Shown: positions 16,650-60,522 of the stretch, in pieces
Layout of the letters: each line of letters starts with the position of its first letter
Numbering within the stretch: the stretch's first letter is position 1
Origin: Spirochaetia bacterium
GTDB taxonomy: Bacteria > Spirochaetota > Spirochaetia > CADAEX01
Direction of reading: 5' to 3'
Length of the DNA stretch: 64,000 nt
NCBI GenBank assembly: GCA_045606105.1
Contig: JAZURI010000003.1
Span: forward strand, 96,001-160,000
Translations under genes and position numbers: made by a program
Notes under the pieces: generated by a model
The model's input: only the letters and a program-made list of their open reading frames with translations
The model's database searches: none
What the model was told of the DNA's origin: nothing

Positions 16650-17978
16650 ATGGAAAAGCCTTCAGCCCTTCTTATTGCACCTCCTGTTTATGACTTTGCC
16701 CTTTTTGACCTTTTTCTCAAGCCCTATGCCCTTCTTAAAATAGGGGCCTACCTTGAGGAAAACGGCTATGATGTTCATCTTATAAACTGTCTCGATTACA
16801 GGGACGAGGAATCGCTCCGTACCATGCGAAGCCCGGCCCGCCGGGAAAACGGCACCGGAAAATTCTTCCGTCAGAGGGCCGAAACTCCGGATATCATTGC
16901 AGGGTACGGAAAATATCTGTTCAGATACGGAATCTCGGAGGAAAGCTTTGAAGCCAAGCTCCGGGCCTTTGGAAAAAAGCCTGATATAGTTCTGGTATCA
17001 TCCGGAATGACCTACTGGTATCCCGGGGTCAGGGAGGCTGTGGAGAAGGTCAGGAAAATATGGCCCGATGCAAAGGTTGCTGTAGGAGGAATCTATGCCA
17101 CACTCATGCCTGAGCATTGTGAACGGGTTGTTGCTCCCGATTTTGTCATCAGGGGAGATGCCCAGGGGGAAAAGGGGCTGAATTATGTTTTCGGGAAGCT
17201 GGGACTTCCTTTGTGTACCGGCTCATGGCGCGATACCATGATGCTCCATCCCGTACTTAAGGATGCTGCCGTGATAAGGATAAACAGAGGCTGTCCCTAT
17301 TCCTGCCATTACTGTGCATCGGCCTGTATCAGCTCCTTTGAGCCGGGCAGCGGAGAAAAGGCTTTTCAGGAGCTTCTTAGGATTCACGGAAAATACGGTA
17401 CCCTCAATTTTGCATTCTATGATGATGCCCTTCTTATAAATAAGGAAAATATCTTTGTTCCGTTTCTGGAAATGGTGGAAAAGTCGGGTCTGAAATTCAA
17501 TTTCTATCTTCCCAACGCTCTTCATCTGGATCGGCTGGACTTTGAGACCGCTTCGCTCATGTACCGGTGCGGCTTCAGGGAAATCAGGGTAGGCTTTGAA
17601 AGCTCCGATGTGAAGTTCCATGAAACAAATGACAACAAGCTGAATCTGGGAACCTTCGGGGAGAAGGTGGATATGCTTTTCAGAAGCGGCTTTACCAAGG
17701 AGAACCTGGGAATATATGTTCTGGCAGGGCTTCCGGGACAGCATGCGGAAGAGGTGGAGGCCTCAATAAGATATCTGGCCGGATTCGGACTCCGGGGAAA
17801 CATAGCCGAGTTCTCCACCGTACCGGGGACAGAGGTCTGGAAGGAATGTGTGGAGAAAAGTATCTTCCCACTGGAAACCGAGCCGGTTTGTCACAACAAC
17901 TCCATTTTTCCGATGCAGTGGGAAGGCTTTACCATGGAGGACATGGCAAGATTAAAGAGGCTTTCTAAAACTCTCTGA
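16650..17978 (+). CDS. B12-binding radical SAM protein
   Basis: RGCPYSCHYC, GGIYAT, GFES. Confidence 0.88.
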   Translation: MEKPSALLIAPPVYDFALFDLFLKPYALLKIGAYLEENGYDVHLINCLDYRDEESLRTMRSPARRENGTGKFFRQRAETPDIIAGYGKYLFRYGISEESFEAKLRAFGKKPDIVLVSSGMTYWYPGVREAVEKVRKIWPDAKVAVGGIYATLMPEHCERVVAPDFVIRGDAQGEKGLNYVFGKLGLPLCTGSWRDTMMLHPVLKDAAVIRINRGCPYSCHYCASACISSFEPGSGEKAFQELLRIHGKYGTLNFAFYDDALLINKENIFVPFLEMVEKSGLKFNFYLPNALHLDRLDFETASLMYRCGFREIRVGFESSDVKFHETNDNKLNLGTFGEKVDMLFRSGFTKENLGIYVLAGLPGQHAEEVEASIRYLAGFGLRGNIAEFSTVPGTEVWKECVEKSIFPLETEPVCHNNSIFPMQWEGFTMEDMARLKRLSKTL

Positions 17979-19647
17979 TCATATCGGTAATGAATTTCAT
18001 GCTGCTGCGGAAAAATTCCTTGGTTTCCACATCAATGCCTGCCTGTTTTGCAACCCCCTTTATATCCATGATTCCGGTACAACCGAGCAGCTTTCTGTAA
18101 AGCTCCGGAAAGTTTTTCCTGTCTTCAAGGTATTTCCTGTAGAGTCCGATGGAGAAAAGCTGTCCGAAGGCATAAGGAAAGTTGTAGAAGCCCAGATCGG
18201 CACTGTAGTAATGACATTTTACCGCCCACATATACGGATGCAGCTGCTCCGGATCCAGGGCATCACCGTAGGTCTTTTTCTGGGCCTTCAGCATGATTTC
18301 TGAAAATTCATCTGCAGAAAGGGCTCCGTCCCTCTTTATTCTTTCGAAAATTTCCTTTTCAAAATAGAATCTGGAAAGGATATCCACAATAACCTGGGTT
18401 ACCTCCTGAAGGAAAAGCTCTGTAATATAGGTCTTTTCAAAGCCCTCTGCCTTTTCAAGAGCAGTGTTGAAAATCAGTGTTTCGGCAAATATGGAGGCTG
18501 TTTCCGCCAAAGTCATGGGATAAGCCCTGGCAAAGGCAGACCTTTTCTTAAGAAGCTCGAAGTGATATGCATGTCCCAGTTCGTGGGCAATGGTTGAGAC
18601 ACCTGACATGGTAGGATTGAAATTGCACATTACCCTGGATTCACCGGCAACCGGGAAGGAGGTACAGTAGGCGCCCCCTATCTTGTTTGCTCTCGGGTCC
18701 TCATCAATCCATCCGTTATCAAAGGCTTTTTCGGCAAATTTACCCATATCCGGGGCAAAGGATGAAAAGGTTTCTGTTATGAATTCCCTGGCATCGGCAT
18801 AGCTCCATTTCCGGGCCTCAAAGCCCTCCTTTGTCAGAGGGGCAAAAATATCGTAGAAGGCCGGCTTTTCAACTCCAAGAAGAGCTCCCTTTTTTCTGAG
18901 ATATTCCCTGAAATGAGGAAGAGATTCCTCCATCACGCTTATCATAGCCCCCAGTGTCTTTGCCGACATGCGGTTCTGAAACAGTGCCTTGTCCAGAGGT
19001 GATTTCCACTTTCTTTTGCCATCCAGGATGATTGCAGTCTTTTTAACACCGTTAAGGGAATAGGCAAGGGGAATTTCCATCTGCTTCCAGGCTTCAAGCT
19101 CCTTTTCCCAGGCCTTCTGTCTTACATTTCTCTCCTTGTCAAAAGCCAGGTTTCTGAGCTCGTTTACTGTTTTCCTGCTGCCGTCATCCCATTCTGATGA
19201 AAGGGCAGATGAAACGGAAGCCTGAAGTCTTGACCAAGCCTCTCCCGAAGCACTCTGCATTTCTGCTGCCAGTCTTTCTTCTTTATCCGAAAGCTGATGC
19301 TTCGCTTCAATGATTGCTTCCTTTATAAAGAGCTTTTTTTCGGGATCGGGAGATCTGTATTTTGATTCAGCCAGCTTTTTTCTGAGATTGGTTTCGATAT
19401 CGGACAGAAGTACATGGCTGTTTTCAAGCTCATCCAGTCTCTTCATGGCAGCCGGATTATTGGTTTCCACTGAAAACAGGGCATAAGCGTGGGAGTAGAG
19501 GGTTTCGTATATATCTGAAGCTTTTCCCAGGAGAGACAGAGCTTTTTCAAAATCAATTTCATTGCCTGCAAGGATGTTTTTCAGCTCCCTGCAGCATTTT
19601 CTGAAAGCACCGAGGCTTGTTTTATTTAGAATATCAAGTTTCCACAT
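17965..19647 (-). CDS. pepF: M3 family oligoendopeptidase F
   Basis: HELGHAYH, LAETAS, FYNFPYAFG; start at MWKLD. Confidence 0.92.
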   Translation of the reverse strand: MWKLDILNKTSLGAFRKCCRELKNILAGNEIDFEKALSLLGKASDIYETLYSHAYALFSVETNNPAAMKRLDELENSHVLLSDIETNLRKKLAESKYRSPDPEKKLFIKEAIIEAKHQLSDKEERLAAEMQSASGEAWSRLQASVSSALSSEWDDGSRKTVNELRNLAFDKERNVRQKAWEKELEAWKQMEIPLAYSLNGVKKTAIILDGKRKWKSPLDKALFQNRMSAKTLGAMISVMEESLPHFREYLRKKGALLGVEKPAFYDIFAPLTKEGFEARKWSYADAREFITETFSSFAPDMGKFAEKAFDNGWIDEDPRANKIGGAYCTSFPVAGESRVMCNFNPTMSGVSTIAHELGHAYHFELLKKRSAFARAYPMTLAETASIFAETLIFNTALEKAEGFEKTYITELFLQEVTQVIVDILSRFYFEKEIFERIKRDGALSADEFSEIMLKAQKKTYGDALDPEQLHPYMWAVKCHYYSADLGFYNFPYAFGQLFSIGLYRKYLEDRKNFPELYRKLLGCTGIMDIKGVAKQAGIDVETKEFFRSSMKFITDMIREF

Positions 19648-19746: not shown

Positions 19747-19756
19747 AGGATTGTGT

Positions 19757-22026: not shown

Positions 22027-23850
22027 ATGGATACTGAAATTTTGCAAAATCAAATTGTCGAACTCGAAGCGCAGATCGAAGCCCTACCCAAAGGCTCTGT
22101 CGCTAAAAAGAGTGTGAACGGCAAAACGTATTATTATCACAGATATAATGAAAACCGCAAAAGAACTGAAAAATATATTGATTTTGATTCCATAGATGCT
22201 CTGCGTGAGCAAATTGAAAAGCGCAAGGCATTGGAGTCAAAGCTGAAGGAGCTGAAGAAGAAAGCGGGCGTTCCACTAAAGAAGCTGCAGAAGAAAGAAA
22301 CACTCTCTTTTCACACCTCCATCCTCACAGGCGAAAAGCTGAAGAAATTCGTTGCCGATGTAAAGGATTACAAAAAGAGAGAGTGCTTCGAACAGCTTCA
22401 GAATTTCGTGTACGGCGATATCAGGGATAGAGTTTTCATTCTCTACGGTCTGCGCCGAACCGGCAAAACGACGATGATCCGTCAGATGATTGCCGATATG
22501 AGCGAATCCGACCTTGCAAAAGCAGCATTCATTCAAATTGCACACAAGGATAAACTTGCCGACGTCAACAAGGACATGAAGCTCTTGGAACAGGGGGGCT
22601 TCAAATATATCTTCATCGACGAGGTCACTTTCATGGAGGACTTCATCGAGGGCGCGGCTCTCTTCTCCGACGTGTTCGCCACCTGCGGTATGAAGATCGT
22701 CCTTTCAGGAACAGATTCCCTCGGCTTTATGTTATCAAAAAGTGAGCAGCTTTACGACAGATGCATCCTTCTGCATACGACCGTTATCCCCTACCGGGAG
22801 TTTGAAAAGGTACTGGGCATCAAGGGTATCGACGAATATATCCGCTACGGCGGCACCATGAGCCTTGGCGGTATAAATTACAACGAGGGCTTTGCTTTTA
22901 CCGATACAAATACGGTCAATTCCTACGTGGACAGTGCAATCGCAAAAAATATTCAGCACTCACTCCGTTATTATCAGGACGGCGGTCACTTCCGCCATCT
23001 CGCGGAGCTTTACGAGAGAAACGAGCTGACCAACGCCATCAATCGTGTAGTTGAGGACATCAACCACCGCTTCACAAAAGAGGTCATTACACGTGAATTT
23101 GAATCCGGAGATCTGGCACGTTCCGCAAGAAATCTACGCAGAGATCGCTTTGCACCCAACACCATTCTTGATGATATCGATACCGAAACATTCACCGAAC
23201 AACTGAAAAACCTTCTCGAAATTCTCGATGAAGCCGATCAGACAGTCAAGGTGGCTGACGTACACGCCGCAGAGATCAAAGAATATCTTGTTCTGCTCGA
23301 TTTGATATACGAGGTCGACTCCCGAAGCTTCCCGAACGTGAACGATATCGGAAAGATCACCGTGGTATCACAGCCCGGAATGCGTTACGCGCAGGCACAG
23401 GCACTTGTAAAGAGCCTGCTCCTCGACAATAAATTTAAGGATCTGAACTTGGATGAGCGCACGCAGGTAATCGAAAGAATCCTCAGCGAGATCAGGGGCA
23501 GAATGATGGAGGATATCATTCTTCTTGAAACCAAGCTCGCACAGCCGAGCAAAGAGGTGTTCAAGCTCCAATTCACCGTAGGTGAGTTCGATATGGTGGT
23601 GTTCGATCCCGAGACCGCATCCTGCGAGATATACGAAATTAAATACAGCACGCAGGTCGTGGAACAACAGTATCAGCACCTCGTGGATGAACAAAAATGC
23701 GCCCAAACTGAACACCGTTTCGGTACAATCAAGGGGAAATACGTACTTTACCGTGGAGCAACGCAGGATGTGAACGGAATACACTACGTGAACGTTGAGG
23801 AATATTTAAATAACGTGTGCAAACTTAGTTTTGATGGTTGTATAAATTAA
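22027..23850 (+). CDS. AAA-family ATPase with C-terminal PD-(D/E)XK-like nuclease domain
   Basis: GLRRTGKT Walker A, IFIDE Walker B, EFDMVV...YEIK. Confidence 0.8.
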   Translation: MDTEILQNQIVELEAQIEALPKGSVAKKSVNGKTYYYHRYNENRKRTEKYIDFDSIDALREQIEKRKALESKLKELKKKAGVPLKKLQKKETLSFHTSILTGEKLKKFVADVKDYKKRECFEQLQNFVYGDIRDRVFILYGLRRTGKTTMIRQMIADMSESDLAKAAFIQIAHKDKLADVNKDMKLLEQGGFKYIFIDEVTFMEDFIEGAALFSDVFATCGMKIVLSGTDSLGFMLSKSEQLYDRCILLHTTVIPYREFEKVLGIKGIDEYIRYGGTMSLGGINYNEGFAFTDTNTVNSYVDSAIAKNIQHSLRYYQDGGHFRHLAELYERNELTNAINRVVEDINHRFTKEVITREFESGDLARSARNLRRDRFAPNTILDDIDTETFTEQLKNLLEILDEADQTVKVADVHAAEIKEYLVLLDLIYEVDSRSFPNVNDIGKITVVSQPGMRYAQAQALVKSLLLDNKFKDLNLDERTQVIERILSEIRGRMMEDIILLETKLAQPSKEVFKLQFTVGEFDMVVFDPETASCEIYEIKYSTQVVEQQYQHLVDEQKCAQTEHRFGTIKGKYVLYRGATQDVNGIHYVNVEEYLNNVCKLSFDGCIN

Positions 23851-25885: not shown

Positions 25886-25887
25886 GT

Positions 25888-28486: not shown

Positions 28487-28731
28487 ATGGGCAAAGGGTG
28501 GTATGCAAGCTGATGGCACATCCAACAACATTGATGGATATGCCGAGAGAAAGTTTGAAGCATTAAAGGAGTACGGAGAAAGATCCTGATGTGCGATATA
28601 TGAAGCTGAAATTAGTTGAAAAATATCCCATCGGACAGTATCCGCTTAAAGAACTCAAAGAAAACGGTCTTACAAGCGTTCAGGGAAGGAGTAAAGCAAC
28701 CGTACATCTGATGAAGTATTTGGAGAAATAA
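28487..28731 (+). pseudogene. Broken/chimeric gene remnant
   Basis: Strong RBS and ATG followed by a stop after 8 codons; other frames give short protein-like pieces ending ...YPLKELKENGLTSVQGRSKATVHLMKYLEK*. Confidence 0.55.
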
Positions 28732-28755
28732 ACAGTTTAAGGAAAATATACGGGG

Positions 28756-29124
28756 TCATTTCCCGCTTACATATTCCACGGCAAAGATCACGGCAACGCC
28801 GGCCAGCAGGCTCAGCAGGATGTAGAGCAGGGCTGTTACCGGATGTCCGGATTTTAACAGGTCTGCCGATTCCAGGGCAAAGGTGGAGAATGTGGTGAAG
28901 CCTCCGCAAAGGCCTACCTTCAGGAACAGCAGCATCTGAGGATTTATCGAATGGTTTCTTGACAGGTATGCCGCTATTATACCGATTGCGATACAGCCGG
29001 CAATATTGATTGAGAATGTCTTGATAGGAAAAATGAAGGATTCGCTTAAAGGAATCAGGCCTATGAGGTACCTGAGCACCGCTCCTGCAAAACCTCCTGC
29101 TCCCACTGCCAGTATTTCTGTCAT
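28756..29124 (-). CDS. crcB: Fluoride efflux channel CrcB/FluC
   Basis: GGFAGAVLRY and GLCGGFTTFSTF. Confidence 0.95.
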   Translation of the reverse strand: MTEILAVGAGGFAGAVLRYLIGLIPLSESFIFPIKTFSINIAGCIAIGIIAAYLSRNHSINPQMLLFLKVGLCGGFTTFSTFALESADLLKSGHPVTALLYILLSLLAGVAVIFAVEYVSGK

Positions 29125-29171
29125 CTCCTCTGTCCCCCCCCCGGTTACCTGCAGAATATATCATCCGGACC

Positions 29172-29652: not shown

Positions 29653-30348
29653 ATGAAATTATCCTTGCTTAAAAACTACTTTACCAAGTTTGAAATCGCC
29701 CTGTGGGTCTCTTCCGTCTCTCTCATTGTCATCTCCTTTCTGCTGTGCCGGAGCGGGGAATACATCAATCTCATTTCATCTCTGGTAGGTGTTTCCTCTC
29801 TCATGCTGTGTGCCAAGGGAAATCCTCTGGGGATGCTCATGATGATTTTTTTCAGCATTCTCTACGGTATCATTTCCTATTCCTTTGCCTATTACGGCGA
29901 GGTGATTACCTATCTGGGAATGTCTGCTCCCATGTCTGTCATTGCATACATTTCCTGGATCCGCAATTCTTATCGGGGACAGAGGTCGGAGGTTGCTGTC
30001 CGTAAGCTCAGGAAAAGGGATATCCTGATTATTGCCCTGGCTGCAGTTGTCATAACTGTTCTTTTCTATCATCTGCTGAAGCATTTCAACAATGCCAATC
30101 TGATTCCCAGCACCTTTTCGGTTACCACCAGCTTCATTGCCGCCTGTCTTACCTTTTTCCGGAGTCCCTGGTTCGCTATGGCCTATGCCCTTAACGACTG
30201 TGTCCTGATTCTTCTGTGGGTAATGGCTGCCTTTGTTGATATTTCATATCTTTCGGTTATCGTCTGCTTTGTTGTTTTCCTGGTAAACGACACCTATTCC
30301 TTCATCAACTGGCGCCGTATGGAAAAGAGACAGCAGAATCAGCTCTGA
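29653..30348 (+). CDS. pnuC: PnuC-family nicotinamide riboside/vitamin transporter
   Basis: AKGNPLG, YYGEVITYL, NDxVLIxLW, C-terminal FINW. Confidence 0.85.
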   Translation: MKLSLLKNYFTKFEIALWVSSVSLIVISFLLCRSGEYINLISSLVGVSSLMLCAKGNPLGMLMMIFFSILYGIISYSFAYYGEVITYLGMSAPMSVIAYISWIRNSYRGQRSEVAVRKLRKRDILIIALAAVVITVLFYHLLKHFNNANLIPSTFSVTTSFIAACLTFFRSPWFAMAYALNDCVLILLWVMAAFVDISYLSVIVCFVVFLVNDTYSFINWRRMEKRQQNQL

Positions 30349-32794: not shown

Positions 32795-32900
32795 TCTTTT
32801 ATTTTATTTTACTGTCGGTACATAGTCAAGGGAAAATAGTATTGACAAACAGTTATCAAAAAATATTAAATTTAACTGCCTGTTTGTGAGGGCAGGCCAT

Positions 32901-34220
32901 ATGCATCGAAAAATTTTTGCCATCGTCGGAAATCCTGTAGGGAAAAGCATTTATCCATTTATTTTCAGAAAACTTTTCGAACTTGACAAATCGGAAAATA
33001 TATATACACGCATAGCTGCATCCGATGCGGAGGAGGCTCTCTCCACTGCCAGGCTGATATCCCTGTCCGGGCTCAACATAGAGACTCCGTACCGTCATGA
33101 TGCCTTTGACCTGTCCGGCATTACCAGCAGGCATACCGAAAATGTCGGTGCCGTAAACGGAATCCTGTTCGACGGAAACGAAAAAACAGGATTCAATACC
33201 GAATATAAGGCAATAGAAGAGAGTCTGTCCGCCAACTGCAGAAATGGACGGAAAGGTAAGGTGGTCATTCTGGGTGACGGACCTGACGGAAGGGCAGCAG
33301 CCTGCGGCTTCGGTTCACAGGGATGGCAGGTTATAATCCTGGGTAAGGTTCTTGCCAATACAGTGGAAGCTGCCCTGAACCTTGGAGCTGAACCGGGAGA
33401 ATTCGGCAGCCTTAAGAAGCATCTCCGGGGAGCCGACCTGGTGATACTGGCCGGTCCTGAGTGTACGGTGGGGACAGAGGTTCTGGAACTGCTTTCCGGT
33501 TTCAGGGTACTTCTCCTTAACTGCGGCGAGGCCCTCATGAGCCGCTGCATGAATATGGAGCTGGATTTTATCCATCCAAAGGAGCTGGGGGTGCTGAGGA
33601 TTCTGGTTGCTTACCGGAAATTCTTCAACAGAGGTTATCCCGGCAGGTTTTCAGATTATGTTGAAGCCATGGAGTCTGCATATGTTCCGGGAAACATCAT
33701 ATCATTCCACGGCTTTGCCTCCACCGGCAAGAACAGGATCGGCAGGGCTGTTGCCGGAAAGCTGGGTATCCCTTTCATAAGGCTGGATGATGAGATAGAG
33801 AAGGAAACCGGCCGGGAAATAATTGATATCATCGAGGAGGAGGGGACAGAGGTTTTTGTCTCCTGTGAAAGAAAAATCCTTGAAAGAATCATTGAAAGGG
33901 GAGAACGTGTTGTTCTGTCCTGCGGAAGCGATACCCTTTTCTCTTCGGAAAACAGGGAACTGCTGAAGCGTTATTCCTGTCCTGTATGGCTGGTGGCAAA
34001 TTCGGAGCTTATACTCAAGAAAAGATTTTTTCTCTCATACAAGCCTGTGGAGGGGGAAAGCATGATAGATGCGGTAAACAGGCTTTATGAAACCAGACGG
34101 ATAAATTATGCCGGTTTGTCGGAGCTCATTGTCAGGAGCGATATTGCGGATACCGAAAAAACGGCAGAAAAAATTGTAAACGAGCTGTCGGCAATGACCG
34201 AAAAATATTCATCACGATAA
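32901..34220 (+). CDS. Shikimate dehydrogenase-shikimate kinase fusion with degenerate active-site motifs
   Basis: AroE-like GNPV, GAVN and GFNT; AroK-like GxxxxGK and DDEIEKETG. Confidence 0.75.
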   Translation: MHRKIFAIVGNPVGKSIYPFIFRKLFELDKSENIYTRIAASDAEEALSTARLISLSGLNIETPYRHDAFDLSGITSRHTENVGAVNGILFDGNEKTGFNTEYKAIEESLSANCRNGRKGKVVILGDGPDGRAAACGFGSQGWQVIILGKVLANTVEAALNLGAEPGEFGSLKKHLRGADLVILAGPECTVGTEVLELLSGFRVLLLNCGEALMSRCMNMELDFIHPKELGVLRILVAYRKFFNRGYPGRFSDYVEAMESAYVPGNIISFHGFASTGKNRIGRAVAGKLGIPFIRLDDEIEKETGREIIDIIEEEGTEVFVSCERKILERIIERGERVVLSCGSDTLFSSENRELLKRYSCPVWLVANSELILKKRFFLSYKPVEGESMIDAVNRLYETRRINYAGLSELIVRSDIADTEKTAEKIVNELSAMTEKYSSR

Positions 34221-34680: not shown

Positions 34681-35304
34681 TCATTGAAAATGGATGAATA
34701 TAAGAACTGAAATAAAGTTGAAAAGGAAGTGAGCTACCGTATTTACTATAATACTGCCGTATTTCCTGAAAAAATATCCTAAAAGCAGTCCCATGATGAA
34801 AATCAGGATAACATTGAAGATACCCTGGTATATGTGTCCGGAGGCAAAGACCAGGGCGCTTGCTGTCATGGCGGGGACAGAGGATATAATCTTTTCAAAG
34901 GACCTGAACATATATGCCCTGAAGAAAAGCTCCTCTGCCAGGCCGGCAACTATGAACATGGGAATCAGCAGGAGTTCCGTATCTCCGGAAACTTTCATAA
35001 AGTCTCCTCCTGTATCGGGAAGAATAAACCGGCCGGCAATACCGGTCAGGTACAATGTTCCCAAGATTAAGGCAGTTCTTTGAATATCCCTGACCTCAAG
35101 AGCTCTGAAACCCATTTCCTTGAGAGTATATTTCTTTATTTTAAAAATAAATATGAAAAGAAGAAGCAGCTGTATCGATGCCACTGCAGTTGCTTTTACT
35201 GCGTATGAGGCATTGATTTCAAGAACCGAACCCGATTTCATGAACGGGTTATAAAGAATGAGAAAAATAATGAGGGGTTCTGCTGCCGGTAATATTTTTT
35301 TCAT
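34681..35304 (-). CDS. CPBP (Abi/CAAX) intramembrane metalloprotease
   Basis: EELFFR, FASGH, HFLFN. Confidence 0.88.
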   Translation of the reverse strand: MKKILPAAEPLIIFLILYNPFMKSGSVLEINASYAVKATAVASIQLLLLFIFIFKIKKYTLKEMGFRALEVRDIQRTALILGTLYLTGIAGRFILPDTGGDFMKVSGDTELLLIPMFIVAGLAEELFFRAYMFRSFEKIISSVPAMTASALVFASGHIYQGIFNVILIFIMGLLLGYFFRKYGSIIVNTVAHFLFNFISVLIFIHFQ

Positions 35305-38194: not shown

Positions 38195-39490
38195 ATGATT
38201 GTATGCAAGTTTGGCGGAAGCTCTGTAGCAGATGCCGTACAGATTTCCAAGACACAGAATATCGTGAAGGGCAATCCTGACAGAAAGATTGTTGTTGTAT
38301 CGGCTCCCGGCAAAAGGGATAAGGAAGATGACAAGATTACGGATCTGCTTTATAAATGTCACAATCTTGCAAGCAATGACAAGCCTATAGATTCCGCATG
38401 GGAAAAGATCAGGAACCGCTATCTCCAGATTGCGGCAGTTCTCGATATCACATGGGATCTGAAGGAGGAGCTTGATTATATTGAAAACAAGCTTGCCGGA
38501 AAATGCAGCTCAGACTATGCAGCAAGCCGCGGGGAATATCTTAATGCCAAGCTTATCTCACTTTATTTCGGATTTGAGTTCCTGGACAGTGCAGAGGTGA
38601 TAAGACTGGGGGACAGAGGTGAGATTCTTCCTGAGACCTACGACCTTATAAGGGAGGCTGTGGATCCTGACAAATATTATGTGGTACCTGGCTTCTACGG
38701 ACTGGGACCTGACGGAGAGATAAAGACCTTCTCCAGAGGCGGCTCCGACATTACCGGAAGTATCTATTCAAAGGCCCTTGAAGCGGATATATATGAAAAC
38801 TGGACCGATGTTTCGGGTATCTATACCACAGACCCTAGAGTTGCAGAGGCCGCAAGACCTATCGACGACATTACATACAGGGAAATGAGGGAGATGGCAT
38901 ATCTCGGAGCAAACGTGTTCCATGAAGAGGCCATTGCACCGGCCCGCCAGGCAGACATTTCCATCAATATCAAGAATACAAACGCACCCGGGGACAGAGG
39001 AACCTTCATCAATTCCGTCAGGGATGCATCAAAGCAGGCGGTAGCAGGAATTGCCGGCAAGAGACATTTCCGCCGTATTACTGTTGAAAAATATAAGCTT
39101 GAGGACATGCACGAGCTTCATTTTGAGCTCAAGAAGGCACTTGGTGCTCTCGGTCTTATCATTGCATTCGAGCTTAAGGGAATTGATACCCTCAATTTCT
39201 ATGTTCAGGATGAAAAGATGATTGACTGGGATTCCTTCGGTGAAAAGCTCAAGGCTGATCTCGATGTGGAGAAGGTGGTATATTCCGAGGACCTGGCTGT
39301 AATCGGAATAATCGGCGAAGGACTTGCCGTTTCATTCTCACATGTGCTTGAGATTCTCAATGCTGTCGGAAAAGAGGGCATCAACATAGAAAACATCAAC
39401 TGCGGTGGTTCACCTATTTCTGCCGTTCTTGTTATCCGTGACGAGGACTATGTAAAGGCAATGAATGTCATTGCTTCCGTTATTGCCTGA
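38195..39490 (+). CDS. lysC: Aspartate kinase
   Basis: KFGGSSV, VVSAPG, FSRGGSDITG, WTDVSG, ACT domains. Confidence 0.93.
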   Translation: MIVCKFGGSSVADAVQISKTQNIVKGNPDRKIVVVSAPGKRDKEDDKITDLLYKCHNLASNDKPIDSAWEKIRNRYLQIAAVLDITWDLKEELDYIENKLAGKCSSDYAASRGEYLNAKLISLYFGFEFLDSAEVIRLGDRGEILPETYDLIREAVDPDKYYVVPGFYGLGPDGEIKTFSRGGSDITGSIYSKALEADIYENWTDVSGIYTTDPRVAEAARPIDDITYREMREMAYLGANVFHEEAIAPARQADISINIKNTNAPGDRGTFINSVRDASKQAVAGIAGKRHFRRITVEKYKLEDMHELHFELKKALGALGLIIAFELKGIDTLNFYVQDEKMIDWDSFGEKLKADLDVEKVVYSEDLAVIGIIGEGLAVSFSHVLEILNAVGKEGINIENINCGGSPISAVLVIRDEDYVKAMNVIASVIA

Positions 39491-39497: not shown

Positions 39498-40742
39498 ATG
39501 AAAAAAACAGCTGCAGCCATACTGTTTCTGCTCATGCTTGCGGTTTTTCCCACATGGGGGGACGGTATCATGCCGCCTGAGCCGGTGCTCAACTGCAGGG
39601 CTGCTGTCCTTATGGACTATGATACGGGGACAGTGCTTTTCAGCAAGAACCCCTCGGCTGAAATTCCCCCGGCCTCAATGACAAAACTCATGACCTCCTT
39701 TCTCCTTTTCGAAAAAATAGAGAGGGGAGAGCTTTCACTTGATGATATCTATACCGTTTCCGAAAAGGCCGATTTCAAGAATGCACCACCCAGGTCGTCA
39801 CTGCTTTTTCTGGAACGGGGACAGAGGTTGACAATAAAGGAGCTGGTTACAGGGCTTCTTGTGGTTTCCGGCAATGATGCGGCCACGGCAGTGGCAGAGC
39901 TGGTTGCAGGGGGACGGGAGGAGTGTGTCGCCCTGATGAACAAACGGGCCGCGGAGCTTGGGTTTCCTTCCTTTCATTTTGAGGATGTATCCGGGTACGA
40001 CAGCCGCAACAAGGTCAATCCCCTTGATTTCTGCCGTTTCTGCAGGCTCTACATAAAAACCTGCTACGATTATTTTGCCGACATAGTGGGAATCGAAACA
40101 TTGGGATATCCCGAAAGAAAGCATCTGGCAGGGACCAAGCCTACCTACGGAAAAATTGTCCAGAACAATTCCAACGAGCTGATAGGGCGGTACGACGGAG
40201 TCGATGGCATTAAAACAGGTTATATAGATGAATCCGGCTATAATGTGGCCCTGACAGCCCGGAGGGACGGAATGAGGCTTGTGGCCGTGATAATGGGAAT
40301 CGATGCCTCCAAACCTTCGGAGGGAAAGCTTCTCAGGGGAATAGACGGATCTGCCCTGATTACCTATGGCTTCAGCACTTTCAGAACCTTCAGACCGGCT
40401 ATGGGTGAAAAGCTTGAGATTCCGGTTTATCACTGCAGCAGCAAAAAAGCGGAAATAGTTCCGGTAATAGATACACCTGTCACTGTCCCTTACAGCCGTC
40501 TCGGAGAGCTGGTTTTCAATGTGAGCATGAAACAGGATATGAAGGGGGAAATGGCTGCGGGGACAGAGGTTGGCCGCTATACCCTGACTCTCGGGGACAG
40601 AGGTTTGGCAGAAGGTCCCATGGTTCTCAGTGAAGGGACAGAAAAATGTTCACCTTTGCAGAATATCCCCGAATTCTTCCGCTTCCTGTTTAAAAAGTCA
40701 GTTGCAGAAAGGAAAATATCTGCTATAATATCACAGTTATGA
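39498..40742 (+). CDS. dacA: D-alanyl-D-alanine carboxypeptidase (S11)
   Basis: SMTK, SGN and KTG motifs; signal peptide. Confidence 0.92.
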   Translation: MKKTAAAILFLLMLAVFPTWGDGIMPPEPVLNCRAAVLMDYDTGTVLFSKNPSAEIPPASMTKLMTSFLLFEKIERGELSLDDIYTVSEKADFKNAPPRSSLLFLERGQRLTIKELVTGLLVVSGNDAATAVAELVAGGREECVALMNKRAAELGFPSFHFEDVSGYDSRNKVNPLDFCRFCRLYIKTCYDYFADIVGIETLGYPERKHLAGTKPTYGKIVQNNSNELIGRYDGVDGIKTGYIDESGYNVALTARRDGMRLVAVIMGIDASKPSEGKLLRGIDGSALITYGFSTFRTFRPAMGEKLEIPVYHCSSKKAEIVPVIDTPVTVPYSRLGELVFNVSMKQDMKGEMAAGTEVGRYTLTLGDRGLAEGPMVLSEGTEKCSPLQNIPEFFRFLFKKSVAERKISAIISQL

Positions 40743-40993
40743 CACGGGAAGATTTTATTTTTACGATAGGTTTTGACGGAGACGGTCCTGTAGTTGACAA
40801 GCTGAATGCAAAAAAATTCGGAAAACTGGGGACAGAGGATTTATTCAGGGAAGGTTTTTACAAGTCGGCAGTATGCTCTGCGGTCTTTTCAGGCAGTGAA
40901 GCGCAGGAAAAGCTGATTCTTGATCTCTACAATGAAAAATCGGACAGAAAGGTAGGTTCCTTTGCCGAACTGAAGGCTGTTTTCGGAGTCTGA
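40739..40993 (+). CDS. Hypothetical protein
   Basis: 84-aa ORF overlapping the dacA stop (ATGA). Confidence 0.7.
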   Translation: MTREDFIFTIGFDGDGPVVDKLNAKKFGKLGTEDLFREGFYKSAVCSAVFSGSEAQEKLILDLYNEKSDRKVGSFAELKAVFGV

Positions 40994-44247: not shown

Positions 44248-44321
44248 GGGCCTATAGCTCAGTTGGTTAGAGCCCTCGACTCATAATCGAGTGGTCCCTG
44301 GTTCAAGTCCATGTGGGCCCA
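44248..44321 (+). tRNA. tRNA with CAT anticodon, probably tRNA-Ile2 (lysidine)
   Basis: GGGCCTA/TGGGCCC acceptor, CTCGA-CTCATAA-TCGAG; promoter TTGACA(44210)...TATAAT(44232). Confidence 0.88.
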
Positions 44322-44364: not shown

Positions 44365-44425
44365 GGTGAGTTGCGTGGGGACAGAGGATATTGCTTGGTG
44401 ATTGCTTGGGGGACAGAGATATTTG
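44365..44425 (+). repeat. Imperfect ~32-bp tandem repeat, each unit carrying GGGGACAGAG
   Basis: GGTGAGTTGCGTGGGGACAGAGGATATTGCTT followed by GGTGATTGCTTGGGGGACAGAGATATTTG. Confidence 0.8.
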
Positions 44426-44472: not shown

Positions 44473-44946
44473 ATGGGAAGAAGAAACAGAATCACCGTTG
44501 ATGGCGGAACCTACCATATTATTAACAAAATTAATGAAGAAAAGATGCTTCTTGAATCGTCATTGATCAAGACTTTGTTCATGAAAATAATCAAAGAGGC
44601 AAAATTTCGTAAAAAATTTAGGTTTAGTCTCAAAAATATTACAATTATGGACAATCATATTCATATGATTATAAAAATGGAACAAGGAGAAAGCTTATCC
44701 AGGTTGATGCAGTGGATTTTTTCTGTCTTTGCCCTTCGTTATAATCGAAGATTTAACAGAAAAGGTCATCTTTGGATTGATAGATTCAAAAGTAAGCTTA
44801 TAGAAACTTTATCTGCATATAGGGCAATATTTGAATATATCTGTAATAATCCGGTTAAGGCAGGTATTGTAAAAAGTGCTGAGGATTATATTTTTGGGTT
44901 CTGGCAATTGAGAGGCAACAGCGAATTTCAGGCACTTTTTACTTGA
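44473..44946 (+). mobile_element. REP-associated tyrosine transposase (RAYT, HUH/Y1 family)
   Basis: TYHI, MDNHIH (HUH), GHLW...RFKS, YICNNPVKAG (catalytic Tyr); RBS AAGGAG before ATG 44473; AT-rich. Confidence 0.9.
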
Positions 44947-44977: not shown

Positions 44978-45769
44978 ATGAACCGATTGGAGCTTCTTGA
45001 TAAGGTTTATAATGAATATCATCGGGAGGAGTACATATATCCTGATCCTCTGTCCCCGGTATTATCCTATAAAAACGCCGATGACAGGGAAGTTGCAGCT
45101 ATTATTGCATCTTCTCTTGCTTTAGGACGGGTTGATCTTATCCTTAAAGCGGTAAATTCTGTGCTTTTACCACTCGGCTCTCATCCGGCTTCTGAACTTG
45201 ATTCTCTCTCGGTGTCGGATTTGAGAGAAATTTATCATGATTTCGTTTATAGATTTTTTAAAACCGATGAAATAACCGGTTTTTTATATGCAATTAAGGT
45301 GATACGCGGGGACAGAGGAAGCCTCCAAGCCCTTTTTACCACAAATTACACCCAAGGAAAGGGCATTACAAGCGGTATTACAGCTCTCAGCAATGAAATT
45401 GCCAGGATTTCAGAGGGTAAATCGGCTATGTTGCTCCCATCTCCTGAAAAAGGCAGTGCCTGTAAAAGGGTTAATCTTTTTCTTAGATGGATGGTCCGGC
45501 ATGATAACATTGATCCGGGAGGATGGTCTGATATAAATACCTGTGATTTGTTGGTTCCGGTTGATACCCATATGTATGATATTGCAAAACGTCTCAGGTT
45601 TACATCCAGAAAGACTGCAGATTTCAAAACAGCAGTTGAAATTACTGCCGGTTTTGCAGAAATTGTTCCTGAAGACCCTGTAAAATATGATTTTTCACTT
45701 ACAAGATTGGGAATACATCCTGATCTTGATAAGGAAATATTTAAAAATCTTGATTTTAAAGGAGAATAG
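44978..45769 (+). CDS. TIGR02757/DUF2400 family protein (HhH-GPD-like)
   Basis: [29 protein letters not shown]. Confidence 0.88.
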
Positions 45770-45926: not shown

Positions 45927-45938
45927 GCTGCTTTAACC

Positions 45939-45973
45939 GGGGACAGAGGTTTATCTGATAAACCTCTGTCCCC
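45939..45973. repeat. Perfect 35-bp palindrome built from two motif copies (REP-like)
   Basis: GGGGACAGAGGTTTATC-T-GATAAACCTCTGTCCCC. Confidence 0.95.
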
Positions 45974-54901: not shown

Positions 54902-56334
54902 GTATAAACGGCAAAAGCTTTTATCTTGTTGGGATAAAGGGTACAGGGCTTTCTGCCTTTGCCGAGCTTCTGCTTAAATCGGGAGCCAAGGTTACGGGAA
55001 GCGACACAGCGGAGAAATTCTATACCGACGAGGTGCTCCGTTCCCAGGGGATAAGCTTCAGGGAGGGTTTTTCTTCCGAAAATATCCCTGCCGGTATCGA
55101 TTATGTAATTTATTCCTCTGCCTATAATCCGGCTGAGAATCCTGACCTTGCGGAAGCGGTCAGGAGAGGTATTCCCATTATGGAGTACACAAAGGCACTG
55201 GGGGCTTTTTCTGAGGCTTACGATGCCGGGGGAATTGCCGGTGTCCATGGCAAGACTACAACAACTGCAATTACTGGAACACTGCTGAAGGCCCTTGATG
55301 CACCGGCTGCAGTTCTGGCCGGTTCTGCGGTATCCAACTTCGACGGCCGTTCCACCTTTGTGAACGGAAACCGTTTTTTTGTGGCTGAAACCTGCGAATA
55401 CAAGCGCCATTTCATGTCATTCCGGCCGTCCAGGATAATAGTTACAAGCATCGAGCCGGATCACCTGGATTTCTTTCCCACATATGCCGATATTTTCAGC
55501 GCATTTGTGGATTATGCCTTGCTGCTGCCGGAAAACGGGGAGCTGATTTACTGTGCCGATGACAGCGGATGCCGTGAGCTGGCTGCCGTTATCAGGGAAA
55601 AAAGAGCCGATATAGTACAGATTCCTTACGGATTCACTGCAGAAGGGGATTACAGGATTACATCTTCCGGAATCAGGGAAAGCCGTAACTGCTTTACATT
55701 GGCAGGCTTTGATACGGAATTTGCCCTGAGGATACCGGGAGAGCATATTGTTCTTGATTCTGCCGCCGCATTGGCCATGACAGTTTCCATCCTTAAGAAA
55801 TGGAAAGGGGAGCCGGGGACAGAGGAACTGGAAAAAATAAGGAACGGCTTTGAGGAGTTCAGAGGAAGCAAGAGACGCAGCGAAATTCTCGGTACTGCCG
55901 GAGGAATCCTGTTCATGGACGATTATGCCCATCATCCCACAGCCATAAGACTGACACTTGAGGGAATCAGGAGCTTTTATCCGGGAAGGAAGCTGGTGGT
56001 GGATTTCATGTCCCATACCTATTCCAGGACCGAAGGACTTCTTGAGGAATTTGCCTCTTCTTTCGGGGCTGCGGATGAGGTTATCCTGAACAATATATAT
56101 GCTTCGGCCCGTGAAAGGAATACGGATTCCGATCTGGACAGCCGTTTTTACCGGGCCCTGTGCCGGAATCACAATAATGTAAAGTATTTTCCGAAGCCTG
56201 CCGACGGCTTTGATTATCTTAAAACACATTTACAAAGGGACCACATATTCATTACTATGGGTGCTGGAGATAACTGGACTGTGGGAAAAATGCTGTATGA
56301 CTATTTTTCCTGCAAAAAAGAGGCTTTAACATGA
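54895..56334 (+). CDS. murC: UDP-N-acetylmuramate--L-alanine ligase
   Basis: GIKGTGLS, GVHGKTTTT, DDYAHHP, HTYSRT, MGAG. Confidence 0.95.
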   Translation: MLSINGKSFYLVGIKGTGLSAFAELLLKSGAKVTGSDTAEKFYTDEVLRSQGISFREGFSSENIPAGIDYVIYSSAYNPAENPDLAEAVRRGIPIMEYTKALGAFSEAYDAGGIAGVHGKTTTTAITGTLLKALDAPAAVLAGSAVSNFDGRSTFVNGNRFFVAETCEYKRHFMSFRPSRIIVTSIEPDHLDFFPTYADIFSAFVDYALLLPENGELIYCADDSGCRELAAVIREKRADIVQIPYGFTAEGDYRITSSGIRESRNCFTLAGFDTEFALRIPGEHIVLDSAAALAMTVSILKKWKGEPGTEELEKIRNGFEEFRGSKRRSEILGTAGGILFMDDYAHHPTAIRLTLEGIRSFYPGRKLVVDFMSHTYSRTEGLLEEFASSFGAADEVILNNIYASARERNTDSDLDSRFYRALCRNHNNVKYFPKPADGFDYLKTHLQRDHIFITMGAGDNWTVGKMLYDYFSCKKEALT

Positions 56335-57197: not shown

Positions 57198-57718
57198 TGA
57201 TAATTGCAATTTCAGGAAAAAGCGGATGCGGTAATACTACCGTAAGTACAATGCTTGCAGAAAAGCTTAATCTTACCTTGGTGAATTATACATTCAGGAA
57301 TCTGGCACAGGATACGGGAAAGGATTTCAAGGAAATCTGTCAGGCTGCAAAGAGCGATCCCTCCTACGACCGTTATATAGATAATCATCAGGTGGAGCTT
57401 GCCGAGAAGGGAAACTGTGTTCTTGGTTCAAGGCTTGCAATCTGGATGGTAAAGAAGGCTGATCTCAAGGTTTTTCTTACAGCCTCCACCGAGACAAGGG
57501 TAGGGAGAATCCACAACAGGGAGGGTGGTGATATCAATGATGTCCGTGAGGCCACAATCCGCAGGGATGCTTCCGATTCAGCCCGTTATATGGAGCTTTA
57601 TTCCATTGACAACAGCAAATATGATTTTGCCGATCTGGTGGTGGATACCGAAAAGTACAGACCGGAACAGATAGTTGAACTGATAATCGAAGAGCTTAAA
57701 AAAAGAAATATCAGCTGA
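57197..57718 (+). CDS. cmk: Archaeal-type cytidylate kinase
   Basis: ISGKSGCGNTT, SRLAIW, RY..LYSID. Confidence 0.82.
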   Translation: MIIAISGKSGCGNTTVSTMLAEKLNLTLVNYTFRNLAQDTGKDFKEICQAAKSDPSYDRYIDNHQVELAEKGNCVLGSRLAIWMVKKADLKVFLTASTETRVGRIHNREGGDINDVREATIRRDASDSARYMELYSIDNSKYDFADLVVDTEKYRPEQIVELIIEELKKRNIS

Positions 57719-58706
57719 AAGGGGAGATTACCCTTATTCCCGGAAACATTCCGGTTATGACATTTTCGTCTTTTTTCTCGAAAATAAGCTTTACATTGGC
57801 TCCTGCATCAATGGTCACATAGCAGGAGAGACCCTCGTTTCTTGCTTTTGAAACAGCTTTGATTACAGCCAGAGTTTCAGGTTCCCAGTATATGAGAGGC
57901 GGATTTGAGGAAAGCATGCATGCATGCATGGAAAGGGCATTGTTTTCAGAGGTTTTTCCAAGCAGCTCAAAATTCTTTTCATTCAGGGCCTTCAGAATAA
58001 GCTCCATATCTCTTTCAACCTGGGAAGGCCATCTTTCGTAAAGGATTGATGTGCCGGCTGTATGTTCCATTCCCTTTCCGGAGCTCATGCATTTTTTTTC
58101 CGACGAAACAGTAACCAGTCCCAGCCTCAGCTCAGGCCATTCATAAGGGAGCTTTTCCGAGAAGGCATCCATTCCGTCAATCCTCTGTCCCCGATGGTTA
58201 TAAACAAATCCTGTAAAAATACTTCTTGAAGCACTGCGGCTCCCTATTCCGGCCAGCATTGAAAGCTCCCTGCTTCCCAGACCGTATCCGTAAAAGCTGT
58301 CCAGCGCCAATGTCAGTGCGGCAAAGCCTGAGGCTGAGGAGGCTGCTCCGGCTGCAGTAGGTATATTGTTTTCAGTAGCAATTTCCAGGGCAGGTCCTTT
58401 GTCCGGTTTCATGAGAGCGGCAAATCTGTTTATTTTTTCTGCAAAAGGGGAATCTGCCGGAAGCCGGGATCCGTTGAATATGATTATGTTTTCCTTGCCT
58501 GGTGCAGCCTTGACCGATGTTAATGTTCCGCAGTTTCCCATGGATACAGAAAGGCTGTCGGTGAGGGGCAGATTCAGCTCCTTGTCCCTTTTTCCCCAAT
58601 ATTTGCAGAGTGCTATGTTGGCAGGGGCAAAGGCTTCCGATTGGTTCTGTATATCAGCTTTCTTTCCATTGATTATTTTTTCGGCATATTCCTTTCTTGT
58701 CAGCAT
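57711..58706 (-). CDS. mvaD: Diphosphomevalonate decarboxylase
   Basis: NIALCKYWGK, PTAAGAASSAS, DAGANVK; start at MLTRK. Confidence 0.93.
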   Translation of the reverse strand: MLTRKEYAEKIINGKKADIQNQSEAFAPANIALCKYWGKRDKELNLPLTDSLSVSMGNCGTLTSVKAAPGKENIIIFNGSRLPADSPFAEKINRFAALMKPDKGPALEIATENNIPTAAGAASSASGFAALTLALDSFYGYGLGSRELSMLAGIGSRSASRSIFTGFVYNHRGQRIDGMDAFSEKLPYEWPELRLGLVTVSSEKKCMSSGKGMEHTAGTSILYERWPSQVERDMELILKALNEKNFELLGKTSENNALSMHACMLSSNPPLIYWEPETLAVIKAVSKARNEGLSCYVTIDAGANVKLIFEKKDENVITGMFPGIRVISPFS

Positions 58707-59611
58707 GTACAGATTCCCTCCTTTGTTATCCTGACCGGAATGTTCAGGAAACCCTCCGGCTTTTTTTCGGGTATTCCCAGCGACAGGACACAATCTCCCA
58801 GACCTGAGCCTGAAATCTTTGCTCCGAGTACATTTCTCTCTTTTCTGAGAGCTTCCGTCATGGTTCTGAGCGTATCATCGCAGACTCCCAGTTCCTCCAT
58901 AAGGGCATTATATTCATCAAAAAGCTTTCCTGTAAGGAAAAAATCCCCTTTTTCCAGGGCAATGGCTGTCTTTTCCGAAACAGAACCCATTTTCCTGTAC
59001 AGCATTTCATATTTTTCCGGATCAGCTTCCGCTTTTTTGTTTACCAGGGCAATGACCTCAGGGGTTTTCATTTTATATCCTGAATAATAGAGATCTATTT
59101 CAGGAAACCAGGCGCAGGGCAATGGAGAAGGTTTTCCGTCCATTTTTATGATACCTCCGAAAACAGAGGCTGCCAGATCGCTTCCGCTTCCTGTTTTCTG
59201 TACACATCGGACCACATCAAGGGCCTGTCTGAAAAGCTCGGAATCAGATAATTCTTTTTCGTATAATAAGTTAAGAGCCTTGCAGATGCTGACTGTAACA
59301 GCGGCTGATGAGCCGAGGCCTGTTTTATGGGAAAACTGGGATTCCGTAGAAATTTTTATTCCGTACTGTGGATTGAAGTTTCTTACAGCTTCGGTGATAA
59401 ATGTGAAATCGGTGCTTCTGACAGGACTGTCCAGATCTGCTTCATAGTTTCCCAAGGCAGATTCTATAATCAGCTTTCTCTTGTTCAGGAGCTCTCCCTT
59501 CAGAAAAATCCTTTTGTCAACGGCACAGGCACAGGCTGAATATCCGTGAAGCACCGCATGCTCCCCGGTCAGCATGAGAGAGCCGGGAGCTGAAACCCTT
59601 ACAACAGACAT
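58700..59611 (-). CDS. GHMP kinase, probable phosphomevalonate kinase
   Basis: APGSLMLTGEHAV, GLGSSAA, GSGSDLA, KISGSGLGDC; position in operon. Confidence 0.8.
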   Translation of the reverse strand: MSVVRVSAPGSLMLTGEHAVLHGYSACACAVDKRIFLKGELLNKRKLIIESALGNYEADLDSPVRSTDFTFITEAVRNFNPQYGIKISTESQFSHKTGLGSSAAVTVSICKALNLLYEKELSDSELFRQALDVVRCVQKTGSGSDLAASVFGGIIKMDGKPSPLPCAWFPEIDLYYSGYKMKTPEVIALVNKKAEADPEKYEMLYRKMGSVSEKTAIALEKGDFFLTGKLFDEYNALMEELGVCDDTLRTMTEALRKERNVLGAKISGSGLGDCVLSLGIPEKKPEGFLNIPVRITKEGICTC

Positions 59612-60522
59612 TCCACCCCTCCGTCGTGAATCCTCACATTGAAAATTGTGTATCCGGCCCTGTCACAGAGCTCTTTAAGCTGCAAACCTCTGTCCCCCAT
59701 ACCGAAAACCAGCCCGATTCCGGCACCGGTTCCTCTTATTGCTCCGGCTCCGCTTATCTTGAATGCACCACCCAGGGCTTCCACCTTTCTTGAGAATTCG
59801 GCAACGGGAGCCGGTACTACCCCGATTTTCTCCAGGAGCCGTTCATTTTCCGTTATGCTTTTCAGGAGCAGGGCTTCGTCGTTTTCCTGCAGGGCTGTCT
59901 CTATGTTTTTTTCTGCTTCGGTAAATTTCTGAAGAAGCTCAGGTGTAAACAGCTTTTTTGTATGGCTGACTGCCTCACCGGTGGTACAGGAGGGTCTGCC
60001 GGTAAAGATTATCGAAAATTCTGGTCCGTTCCCAAGGGTAATGGCAGGTCCGGGAAGTATTTTCCCCTTTTCCAGCTTTACCGTTCCCCCTGAAATGACG
60101 GCAGCAGGATCAAGTCCGCTGGAAGTGCCGTGTACCAGGTTTTCGCAGTCCCGGATGACTTCAACCATTTCATTTTTAGGTATTCTGATACCGTGAAGAA
60201 TACAAAGACCGGCAAATACCGATGTTATGGCAGCGGCCGAGGAGCCCATTCCCGAGCCGGTGGGGACAGAGGATGATATTTCCATATCAGCCCCTTTTGT
60301 CAGTCCGAATCTTTCTTCAAACTTCCTGACGGCATAATAAAGGGGATCGGTATTTTCATTTTCTTTTGATTTTATAGAAATATTTTTTCCGTTATTTTCT
60401 CTTATATGATTTTCCACATAGAGAGTACATGCCGCAGCCAGGGCAGGTGCACCCATGACAACAGCGTGTTCACCTGATATTATAACTTTTCCGGGAACCT
60501 TTATTCTGTACTCTGCTGGCAT
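59599..60522 (-). CDS. mvk: Mevalonate kinase
   Basis: PGKVIISGEHAV, PTGSGMGSSAA, HGTSSGLD, KISGAG. Confidence 0.85.
   Translation of the reverse strand: MPAEYRIKVPGKVIISGEHAVVMGAPALAAACTLYVENHIRENNGKNISIKSKENENTDPLYYAVRKFEERFGLTKGADMEISSSVPTGSGMGSSAAAITSVFAGLCILHGIRIPKNEMVEVIRDCENLVHGTSSGLDPAAVISGGTVKLEKGKILPGPAITLGNGPEFSIIFTGRPSCTTGEAVSHTKKLFTPELLQKFTEAEKNIETALQENDEALLLKSITENERLLEKIGVVPAPVAEFSRKVEALGGAFKISGAGAIRGTGAGIGLVFGMGDRGLQLKELCDRAGYTIFNVRIHDGGVECLL

Follow-up and report, generated by a model that had tools for sequence, protein, structure and literature searches.

REP-associated tyrosine transposases (RAYTs) are named after the repetitive extragenic palindromes (REPs). REPs are palindromes of 20-40 nt with a GT[AG]G foot, which are extragenic and spread genome-wide in hundreds of copies, and the RAYT gene is usually single-copy and vertically kept (PMC5581495, PMC6006769, PMC8266576). 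TIRtrons (Di Nocera et al. 2013, PMC3733652) carry a Y1 gene with inverted repeats sharing GGGGWSAS and not GTAG hairpins; the repeats of these terminal inverted repeat associated tyrosine transposases (TIRYTs) are moderately abundant in some genomes. Here we describe a locus of a Spirochaetia bacterium in which a Y1 HUH gene lies at the centre of a cluster of exact copies of the 11-mer GGGGACAGAGG (12 letters with a trailing W). The window is the whole 64,000-nt stretch analysed (C3:96001-160000 of genome G000, which comprises 1.46 Mb in 11 contigs), and coordinates without contig label are window positions. GGGGACAGAGG(W) is very probably the cognate of the local RAYT/TIRYT enzyme, with a build-up that depends on this enzyme and occurs mostly in cis. 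The link to the gene, a mainly cis action and an origin of the copies in place are well supported.

The closest known kin of this system are the RAYT/TIRYT TIRtrons. As in TIRtrons, GGGGACAG fits GGGGWSAS and inverted GGGGACAGAGGAT at 44377(+) and 45047(-) flank the Y1 gene. However, the available parts of PMC3733652 describe no gene-confined cloud of repeats, no in-gene copies arising by substitution and no variant-specific clouds. RAYT/REP systems (REPtrons) share with the present locus the enzyme family, a gene flanked by its cognate repeat and the co-variation of enzyme and repeat. The repeat itself differs from REPs and REPINs in being a 12-nt linear word without GTAG, mostly genic, local and present in ~30 copies.

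The Y1 HUH gene (44473..44946, + strand) encodes a 157-aa protein of RAYT/TIRYT type and starts with an ATG behind AGGAG, the mechanical open reading frame (ORF) start being at 44455. It is the one Y1_Tnp gene (E=4e-15) among 62 window ORFs annotated with Pfam, which otherwise correspond to ordinary housekeeping genes. The HUH motif reads NHIH and the catalytic Tyr lies in YICNNPVKAG; the HUH His residues, the catalytic Tyr, N and P show no variation among 12 aligned homologs. The protein reaches 85.7 bits (85.5 bits in the genome scan) with NCBIfam NF047646 (REP-associated tyrosine transposase, cutoff 80) and matches PDB 4er8 (E. coli TnpArep) with E=1.3e-5. By table reading only, its NHIH and YICNNP signature resembles that of RAYT subclass 2.4 (PMC6006769). 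With IS200/IS605 elements it shares the Y1 HUH transposase, and a word-bounded unit of ~640 bp occurs in two identical copies in the congener G001. In contrast to such elements, it remains below the cutoff of the IS200 transposase model (32.6 bits against 55), subterminal hairpins are absent and the G000 gene has no tnpB beside it.

The immediate flanks of the gene carry the word in inverted orientation. The left repeat, GGGGACAGAGGAT, lies in the intergenic region 96 nt upstream of the ATG (44377..44387, +), where G005 reads GGGGACAGAGC. The same 13-mer is found inverted 101 nt downstream of the stop (45047..45057, -), antisense within a DUF2400/TIGR02757-type gene, where it encodes PDPLSP; the orthologs have PDPLAP, with 2 mismatches to the word in G002 and 3 in G005. 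This copy serves as the right inverted repeat of the Y1 unit. A second upstream copy (44409..44418, +) matches only the first 10 bases of the word and reads GGGGACAGAG followed by A. The RAYT segment of ~650 bp is inserted between a tRNA-Met with its terminator hairpin (44248..44321, +) and the DUF2400 start. In G003, G006 and G007 the tRNA-Met and DUF2400 genes are adjacent at the syntenic site and the segment is missing, while G005 has it.

The window holds 21 exact copies of GGGGACAGAGG (16 on + and 5 on -), for an expected count of 0.06 and a largest count of 2 in 100 dinucleotide shuffles of the window. Genome-wide, 29 of the 32 copies lie in C3:84818-195421 (~110 kb, 8% of the genome) at a median distance of ~11 kb from the Y1 HUH gene, and the remaining three are located one each on C7, C9 and C11. 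Seven other frequent 11-mers of G000 peak at 5-7 per 120 kb. The base directly 3' of the word is A or T in 32/32 copies and the second is T in 20/32; flanks further out are uninformative, and a search for longer shared flanks across the 32 copies found none. A search for hidden hairpins was likewise negative, the fold energy of the copies (-5.17 kcal/mol) being equal to that of 2-mismatch controls (-5.27 kcal/mol). The sole hairpin-forming copies in G000 are the inverted pair 45939/45963, which forms a perfect 16-bp stem with a 3-nt loop (45939..45973; -19.3 kcal/mol) just after a small ORF judged rubredoxin-like by eye (CxxC...CxxC; 45771-45929, +). The syntenic spacers in G002 and G003 lack this ORF, and the hairpin, as folded from its sequence, may serve as its terminator.

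Most copies are genic. Relative to ORFs of at least 100 aa, 24 of the G000 copies are sense, 3 antisense and 5 intergenic (n=32), and 26/29 of those on contig C3 lie inside ORFs of at least 70 aa. All three reading frames are used (GDRG, GTE, GQR), with occasional antisense copies (SSVP, PLSP), so that the feature exists at the level of DNA rather than as a protein repeat. Words with 1-3 mismatches to GGGGACAGAGG are already 69-79% sense genome-wide. A cause of the sense bias at the level of transcription or RNA was considered and rejected, the exact copies (24/27 sense) being not clearly above this near-cognate background (p=0.08).

Exact short words that arise in genes by substitution are familiar from DNA uptake sequences (DUS/USS), Chi and the FtsK-orienting KOPS, which are strand-biased, genome-wide and tied to host machinery. 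The word described here differs in being local and tied to a mobile-type gene. The original prediction had drawn the analogy with DUS/USS, enriched by biased uptake and recombination, and a short exact word inside genes that arises by substitution does agree with it. However, an even genome-wide density is not observed, only 3/32 copies lying outside one 110-kb region. There is also no excess of singly mismatched words: 30 one-mismatch variants occur genome-wide (4 in C3:80-200 kb vs ~2.5 expected by size) and 424 two-mismatch variants (30 in C3:80-200 kb), a ratio of 30:424 that is near-combinatorial. Finally, the word is patchy within the genus and its enrichment tracks the RAYT gene, not the species. 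Clustering and the background one-mismatch count together rule out an uptake-sequence-like genome-wide signal, and we regard this explanation as extremely improbable.

Copies in G000 are mostly on + to the left and mostly on - to the right of ~C3:152 kb; upstream of the Y1 gene 17 are on + and 1 on -, downstream 4 are on + and 7 on -. The orientation switch suggested a replication terminus with KOPS. This candidate was rejected because the GC skew does not flip, remaining positive beyond 160 kb, and because the word is not genome-wide. A related explanation is that the word is the target of a host chromosome-organising protein (parS, matS, ram or KOPS-like), beside whose sites the transposase gene merely landed. 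The parS sites near parAB and the B. subtilis ram sites are indeed tens of exact, often genic sites clustered near the gene of their binding protein, and the local array of exact sites inside genes and its orientation pattern are in keeping with such a function. However, parS and ram sites lie at the origin and are palindromic duplexes recognised by dimeric proteins, and there is no evidence here of such a role.

The distribution of gene and word within the genus speaks against a host organiser. The family hidden Markov model, in agreement with a protein query, places a RAYT gene in 3/9 genomes of the genus (G000, G001 and G005), which hold 32, 33 and 14 copies of GGGGACAGAGG while the six others have 0-2. 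The RAYT-less G002 has one copy genome-wide and the word at none of 13 aligned orthologous sites. In the rest of the class, the flanks of the homologs carry a sister word, GGGGACGGAGG, which reaches at least 10 copies in 11/12 further homolog-bearing relatives and at most 3 in 24/26 homolog-less ones. Two homolog-less relatives depart from this pattern, G009 with 10 copies and G024 with 8 (reversed control 13).

G001 offers a comparison of several RAYT genes in one cell. It has five, two of them identical units over ~640 bp bounded by the word, for one each in G000 and G005. Its copies crowd the RAYT genes on C4, C6 and C12, and the corresponding G000 regions are without copies. Two G001 paralogs, which are 66% identical to each other and 50-58% to the rest, are flanked by the variant GGGGACAGAGC, present in 53 copies in G001 and in 2 and 1 copies in the RAYT-less G003 and G002. 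The surrounding clouds follow the variant of the local gene. Contigs whose RAYT flanks end in GAGG carry 9 GAGG and 0 GAGC copies (C4) or 10 and 2 (C6), those with GAGC flanks carry 0 GAGG and 12 GAGC (C2) or 0 and 4 (C50), and C12, where the flanks are mixed, has 7 GAGG and 10 GAGC (Fisher p=3e-6 for C4 vs C2). The identity of a cloud is therefore set by the local gene and a host-wide factor is excluded. Clouds at non-orthologous places that track RAYT copies, two variants each tracking its own paralog in one genome, RAYT-less congeners with 0-2 copies and none at orthologous sites, and the absence of a GC skew flip make a chromosome organiser very unlikely. One motif copy lies within the RAYT coding sequence itself in G001 (L040:11682 and L042:5698, LLGTEES); it recalls the in-gene REPs of subclass 2.4 (PMC6006769) but adds no length.

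At G001:C6:25.3-25.9 kb (L042), the RAYT unit is located exactly at a synteny breakpoint, the left side corresponding to G000 C3:35-38 kb and the right side to C11:38-49 kb. This arrangement suggests a RAYT-associated rearrangement. Motif copies are found on the left flank of this gene only, and the newly joined flank has no copy in 10 kb. This empty flank and the lack of copies at the 13 sites of the RAYT-less G002 argue that the cloud forms after the arrival of the gene. Alternatively, the cluster could have been imported as a block from a word-rich donor, or the transposase could have inserted into a pre-existing cluster. A density that falls with distance around the inserted gene is compatible with this. 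However, over C3:94-172 kb there is no regional drop in amino-acid identity to G002, no more than 48 copies occur in any of the 41 genomes searched and the RAYT-less relatives have no clusters, which leaves import or pre-existence highly improbable.

The same organisation is observed more widely. Comparison of the 12-homolog alignment with species-representative genomes gave 587 relatives, of which the best 80, nearly all from metagenome-assembled genomes titled Spirochaetota, were used. Within 10 kb of the gene at these 80 loci, the core GGGGAC[AG]GAG occurs 495 times vs 4 for the reversed control. The core reaches 3.07 copies per kb over the first 300 nt upstream of the gene and 0.25-0.86 per kb elsewhere to 10 kb, and 67/71 of the copies at most 300 nt upstream have the orientation of the gene. 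Copies beyond the immediate flanks divide into 215 sense, 112 antisense and 82 intergenic ones. Copies upstream of the gene are oriented 101 on + and 79 on -, and those downstream 95 on + and 134 on - (p=0.004). This tendency of the copies to face the RAYT gene from both sides, seen at the 80 loci and on G000 C3, is unexplained by gene orientation. One-mismatch neighbours of the core, with the other variant removed, number 354 vs 103 for the reversed control (~3.4x).

Copies arise by replacement in place and not by REP/MITE-style insertion, a conclusion well supported by comparison of orthologous sequences. The original prediction had proposed as much, and its comparison with REP and miniature inverted-repeat transposable elements (MITEs) agrees with the alignments. 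In codon alignments with up to 8 congeners, none of 6 sites coincides with an ortholog gap, and the residues are clearly replaced. The 13/13 genic sites alignable with G002 orthologs (on a 118-kb syntenic contig) are ungapped. The independent G001 sites are ungapped vs G000 in 15/16 cases, the sixteenth being within a longer segment that has no G000 counterpart. In all, 28/29 aligned sites add no residues. Intragenic REP and RPE copies are likewise repeats placed in frame inside unrelated genes, but they are described (PMC3733652, PMC6006769) as insertions that add 20-80 residues in tolerant loops.

The idea that conserved protein motifs are overwritten held only in part: sequence is overwritten, but most copies sit in variable stretches between conserved residues (PEESG/PDEAG to PGDRG, for example). 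Motif-bearing genes are also less conserved, with a median amino-acid identity to G002 of ~58% vs ~68% as read from the table. The proposed conversion of near-cognate sites likewise found partial support only. G002 has at most 2 mismatches to the word at 2/13 sites, but the range is 2-10 of 11 and the mean 6.15, compared with a mean of 4.20 differences for control 11-mers in the same genes (P=0.0003). The G001 sites similarly differ from G000 at 5.93 positions on average vs 3.95 in controls. The five sites given as examples in the original prediction (17825, 38990, 39817, 45047 and 60262) have the coordinates, genes and peptides attributed to them, and the two near-matches it cited, at 1304-1313(-) and 39626(+), are both present.

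The individual genic copies are as follows. The radical SAM/B12-binding gene carries one in the GTE frame (17825..17835, +, sense, PGTEV) and the ORF 28670-29164(-) another (29127..29137, -, sense), both identical in G005. The sense copy in the nicotinamide mononucleotide (NMN) transporter gene (29975..29985, +) differs from G005 at 5 positions including a 2-nt alignment gap. A shikimate dehydrogenase/kinase gene has two sense copies (33470..33480 and 33842..33852, both +), and an Rce1-like gene has an antisense one (34873..34883, +, SSVP). In aspartate kinase, LGDRGE replaces IGEHGE of the congeners (38609..38619, +) and APGDRGT corresponds to their AP[ED]E[SAP]GT (38990..39000, +), both copies being identical in G005. 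The Peptidase_S11 D-Ala-D-Ala carboxypeptidase contains three: ERGQRL (39817..39827, +), identical in G005; AAGTEVG (40559..40569, +), for which the G005-like protein P0002 has AGTEVG; and LGDRGL (40593..40603, +), which faces LDGSPL in congeners and LGDEKI in P0002 and is thus not conserved there. An 84-aa ORF (40739-40993) reads LGTED where congeners have LGTAE (40828..40838, +). The DUF2400 gene also carries a sense copy, RGDRGS (45308..45318, +), identical in G005. In the Mur ligase gene, EPGTEE (55815..55825, +) differs from G005 at 6/11 bases within well conserved flanks, the adjacent upstream sequence being almost unchanged. The diphosphomevalonate decarboxylase gene has one sense copy (58182..58192, -). 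The GHMP (mevalonate) kinase gene has a sense copy (59687..59697, -), where G005 reads GGGGACAGAGC, and an antisense one (60262..60272, +, SSSVPTG), identical in G005 and with 2 mismatches in G002 (SSSLPIG).

Copies are conserved between sister species. In G005, 16 of the G000 sites were located, of which 10 are unchanged, 2 end in GAGC and the others differ at 2, 3, 5 and 6 positions; conversely, G000 differs at 5-6 positions from each of three sites specific to G005. On contigs chosen without regard to the word, 5/8 sites are identical in G005 vs 15.7% of control 11-mers (P=0.0035), and closer locus pairs, at 85% identity, have 12/14 sites unchanged. One genome of a trio has GGGG... at three orthologous sites where the two other genomes have AGGG.... 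A metagenome contig scan for closer relatives found none nearer than 77% amino-acid identity, with L075 66-74% identical at the DNA level, and a protein search gave one intermediate cluster at 71%. The stretch is present in 20/24 listed runs, from public gut metagenomes. Contigs from 4 runs showed 771 differences, and the 40 inspected all lay outside the motif copies; 4 bases are deleted at 29133, in the G-run, in one divergent contig, and the loop carries insertions at 45952-45958 in another.

The following scenario very probably underlies these observations. GGGGACAGAGG(W) is the core of the repeats flanking the gene 44473-44946, which arrived between the tRNA-Met and the DUF2400 gene. The word afterwards accumulated across the surrounding tens of kb by base replacement within ordinary genes, copies landing in change-tolerant protein segments and then being retained. 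The enzyme would bind or cut single-stranded GGGGACAGAGGW. The copy-making step may consist of ordinary point substitutions fixed one by one, a possibility to which we give a little less than an even chance. In this case, binding or processing by the enzyme of partial and full sites near its own gene would expose these to selection, or to an element-level drive, on binding strength. Point substitution within genes is also the origin of Chi, KOPS, parS and uptake sequences. Stepwise change is favoured by the one-mismatch excess at the 80 loci and by the sense bias of the exact copies, which is near that of near-cognate words (76%).

Several observations weigh against this scenario. Strict cis action does not account for G009, with 10 copies and no Y1 gene found, for G022, where one Y1 gene accompanies 48 copies over at least 20 contigs, or for a five-copy sub-cluster in the G000 shikimate operon, 52-56 kb from the Y1 gene. 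Nor is any function known that would repay the amino-acid changes imposed by ~30 local sites. G000 has no one-mismatch halo (4 in the region vs ~2.5 expected). Lineage-specific sites differ at 5-6/11 positions from the sister species, where average 11-mers differ at ~2.25 by our own arithmetic. Lastly, the same base was changed jointly at three orthologous sites in one lineage, which resembles homogenisation. In G022, tandem coding repeats multiply copies (C22:23816-23883 and C6:19299-19512, with PPGTEA x4 and KKRGQRKKP x2-3), tandem duplication being a second route to extra copies. No tblastn match to a remnant RAYT was obtained at E <0.8 near the C3 84-88 kb sub-cluster.

Since the cluster is centred on the gene of a single-strand HUH nuclease, nick-directed gene conversion, also raised in the original prediction, is a live option. 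The enzyme would cut and join single strands nearby and, directly or via repair, write the ~12-base word over sequences that resemble it only loosely; repeated homogenisation would let these copies evolve in concert from a master copy. We consider such short-patch conversion possible but on balance doubtful. Exact copies are ~35x more frequent than predicted from their one-mismatch neighbours, without a halo in G000, and gains span 5-6/11 bases within conserved flanks. Motif sites are more diverged from their orthologs than controls (6.15 vs 4.20; 5.93 vs 3.95), the concerted alteration of one base at three orthologous sites is readily accommodated, and paralog-adjacent clouds are variant-specific in one cell. 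The catalytic HUH and Tyr residues are intact, and the mechanism of REP dissemination is stated as unknown in PMC8266576. Against conversion, the recently joined G001 flank is still empty, implying that the copy-making process is slow, and the wider family shows a one-mismatch excess. The sites also lie in fast-evolving segments, where high mismatch counts may reflect local divergence. To our knowledge, no HUH reaction swaps a patch without flanking homology or change of length. In its strongest form, in which a RAYT-type HUH enzyme would be a cis-restricted sequence writer that places ~12-base patches without indels, essential genes included, and keeps them homogenised, the proposal appears unlikely. 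We retain stepwise fixation under enzyme binding as our working interpretation.

Several neighbouring features were recorded. Shikimate dehydrogenase/kinase fusion genes are two in G000 (C3:82-88 kb and 32886-34220), and the shikimate operon of G001 (C36) has 3 GAGG and 5 GAGC copies at positions unlike those of G000. A complete-looking mevalonate block (57711-63740, -) comprises HMG-CoA reductase, HMG-CoA synthase, two GHMP kinases, diphosphomevalonate decarboxylase and an FMN-dependent dehydrogenase that is isopentenyl-diphosphate isomerase-like. A type III restriction-modification pair (23873-28473), composed of Mod (N6_N4_Mtase, TypeIII_RM_meth) and Res (ResIII), forms an island of 35% GC with an AAA_14 ATPase gene directly upstream (22027-23847); no link between this island and the word turned up, a question that was not pursued. 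Outside the window, G000 contains 24 copies of a ~36-nt repeat whose end resembles that of a Cas12a-type CRISPR direct repeat.

No description of gene-centred, substitution-built clouds was found in the literature on TIRYT/TIRtron, RAYT/REPIN or tyrosine (Y1) transposases and coding regions in spirochaetes, covered mostly at the level of titles and abstracts. The spread of RAYT-associated repeats 'remains to be elucidated' according to PMC8266576. In the present system the repeat amounts to no more than a 12-base linear word whose copies can be dated and aligned against orthologs, and these alignments show that copies are made in place, near the enzyme gene and specifically for each enzyme variant. 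The many independent Spirochaetota loci provide a tractable natural system in which HUH-driven local conversion may be distinguished from a domesticated transposase that has acquired binding sites arrayed around its gene. Genome evolution and HUH enzymology are concerned in both cases, and the copies alter residues of housekeeping enzymes at a cost. If the enzyme were a sequence writer, repeats would proliferate by a mode other than transposition, which might explain how REP-like sequences spread. The locus thus indicates a mode of spread of bacterial repeats that is still little understood.

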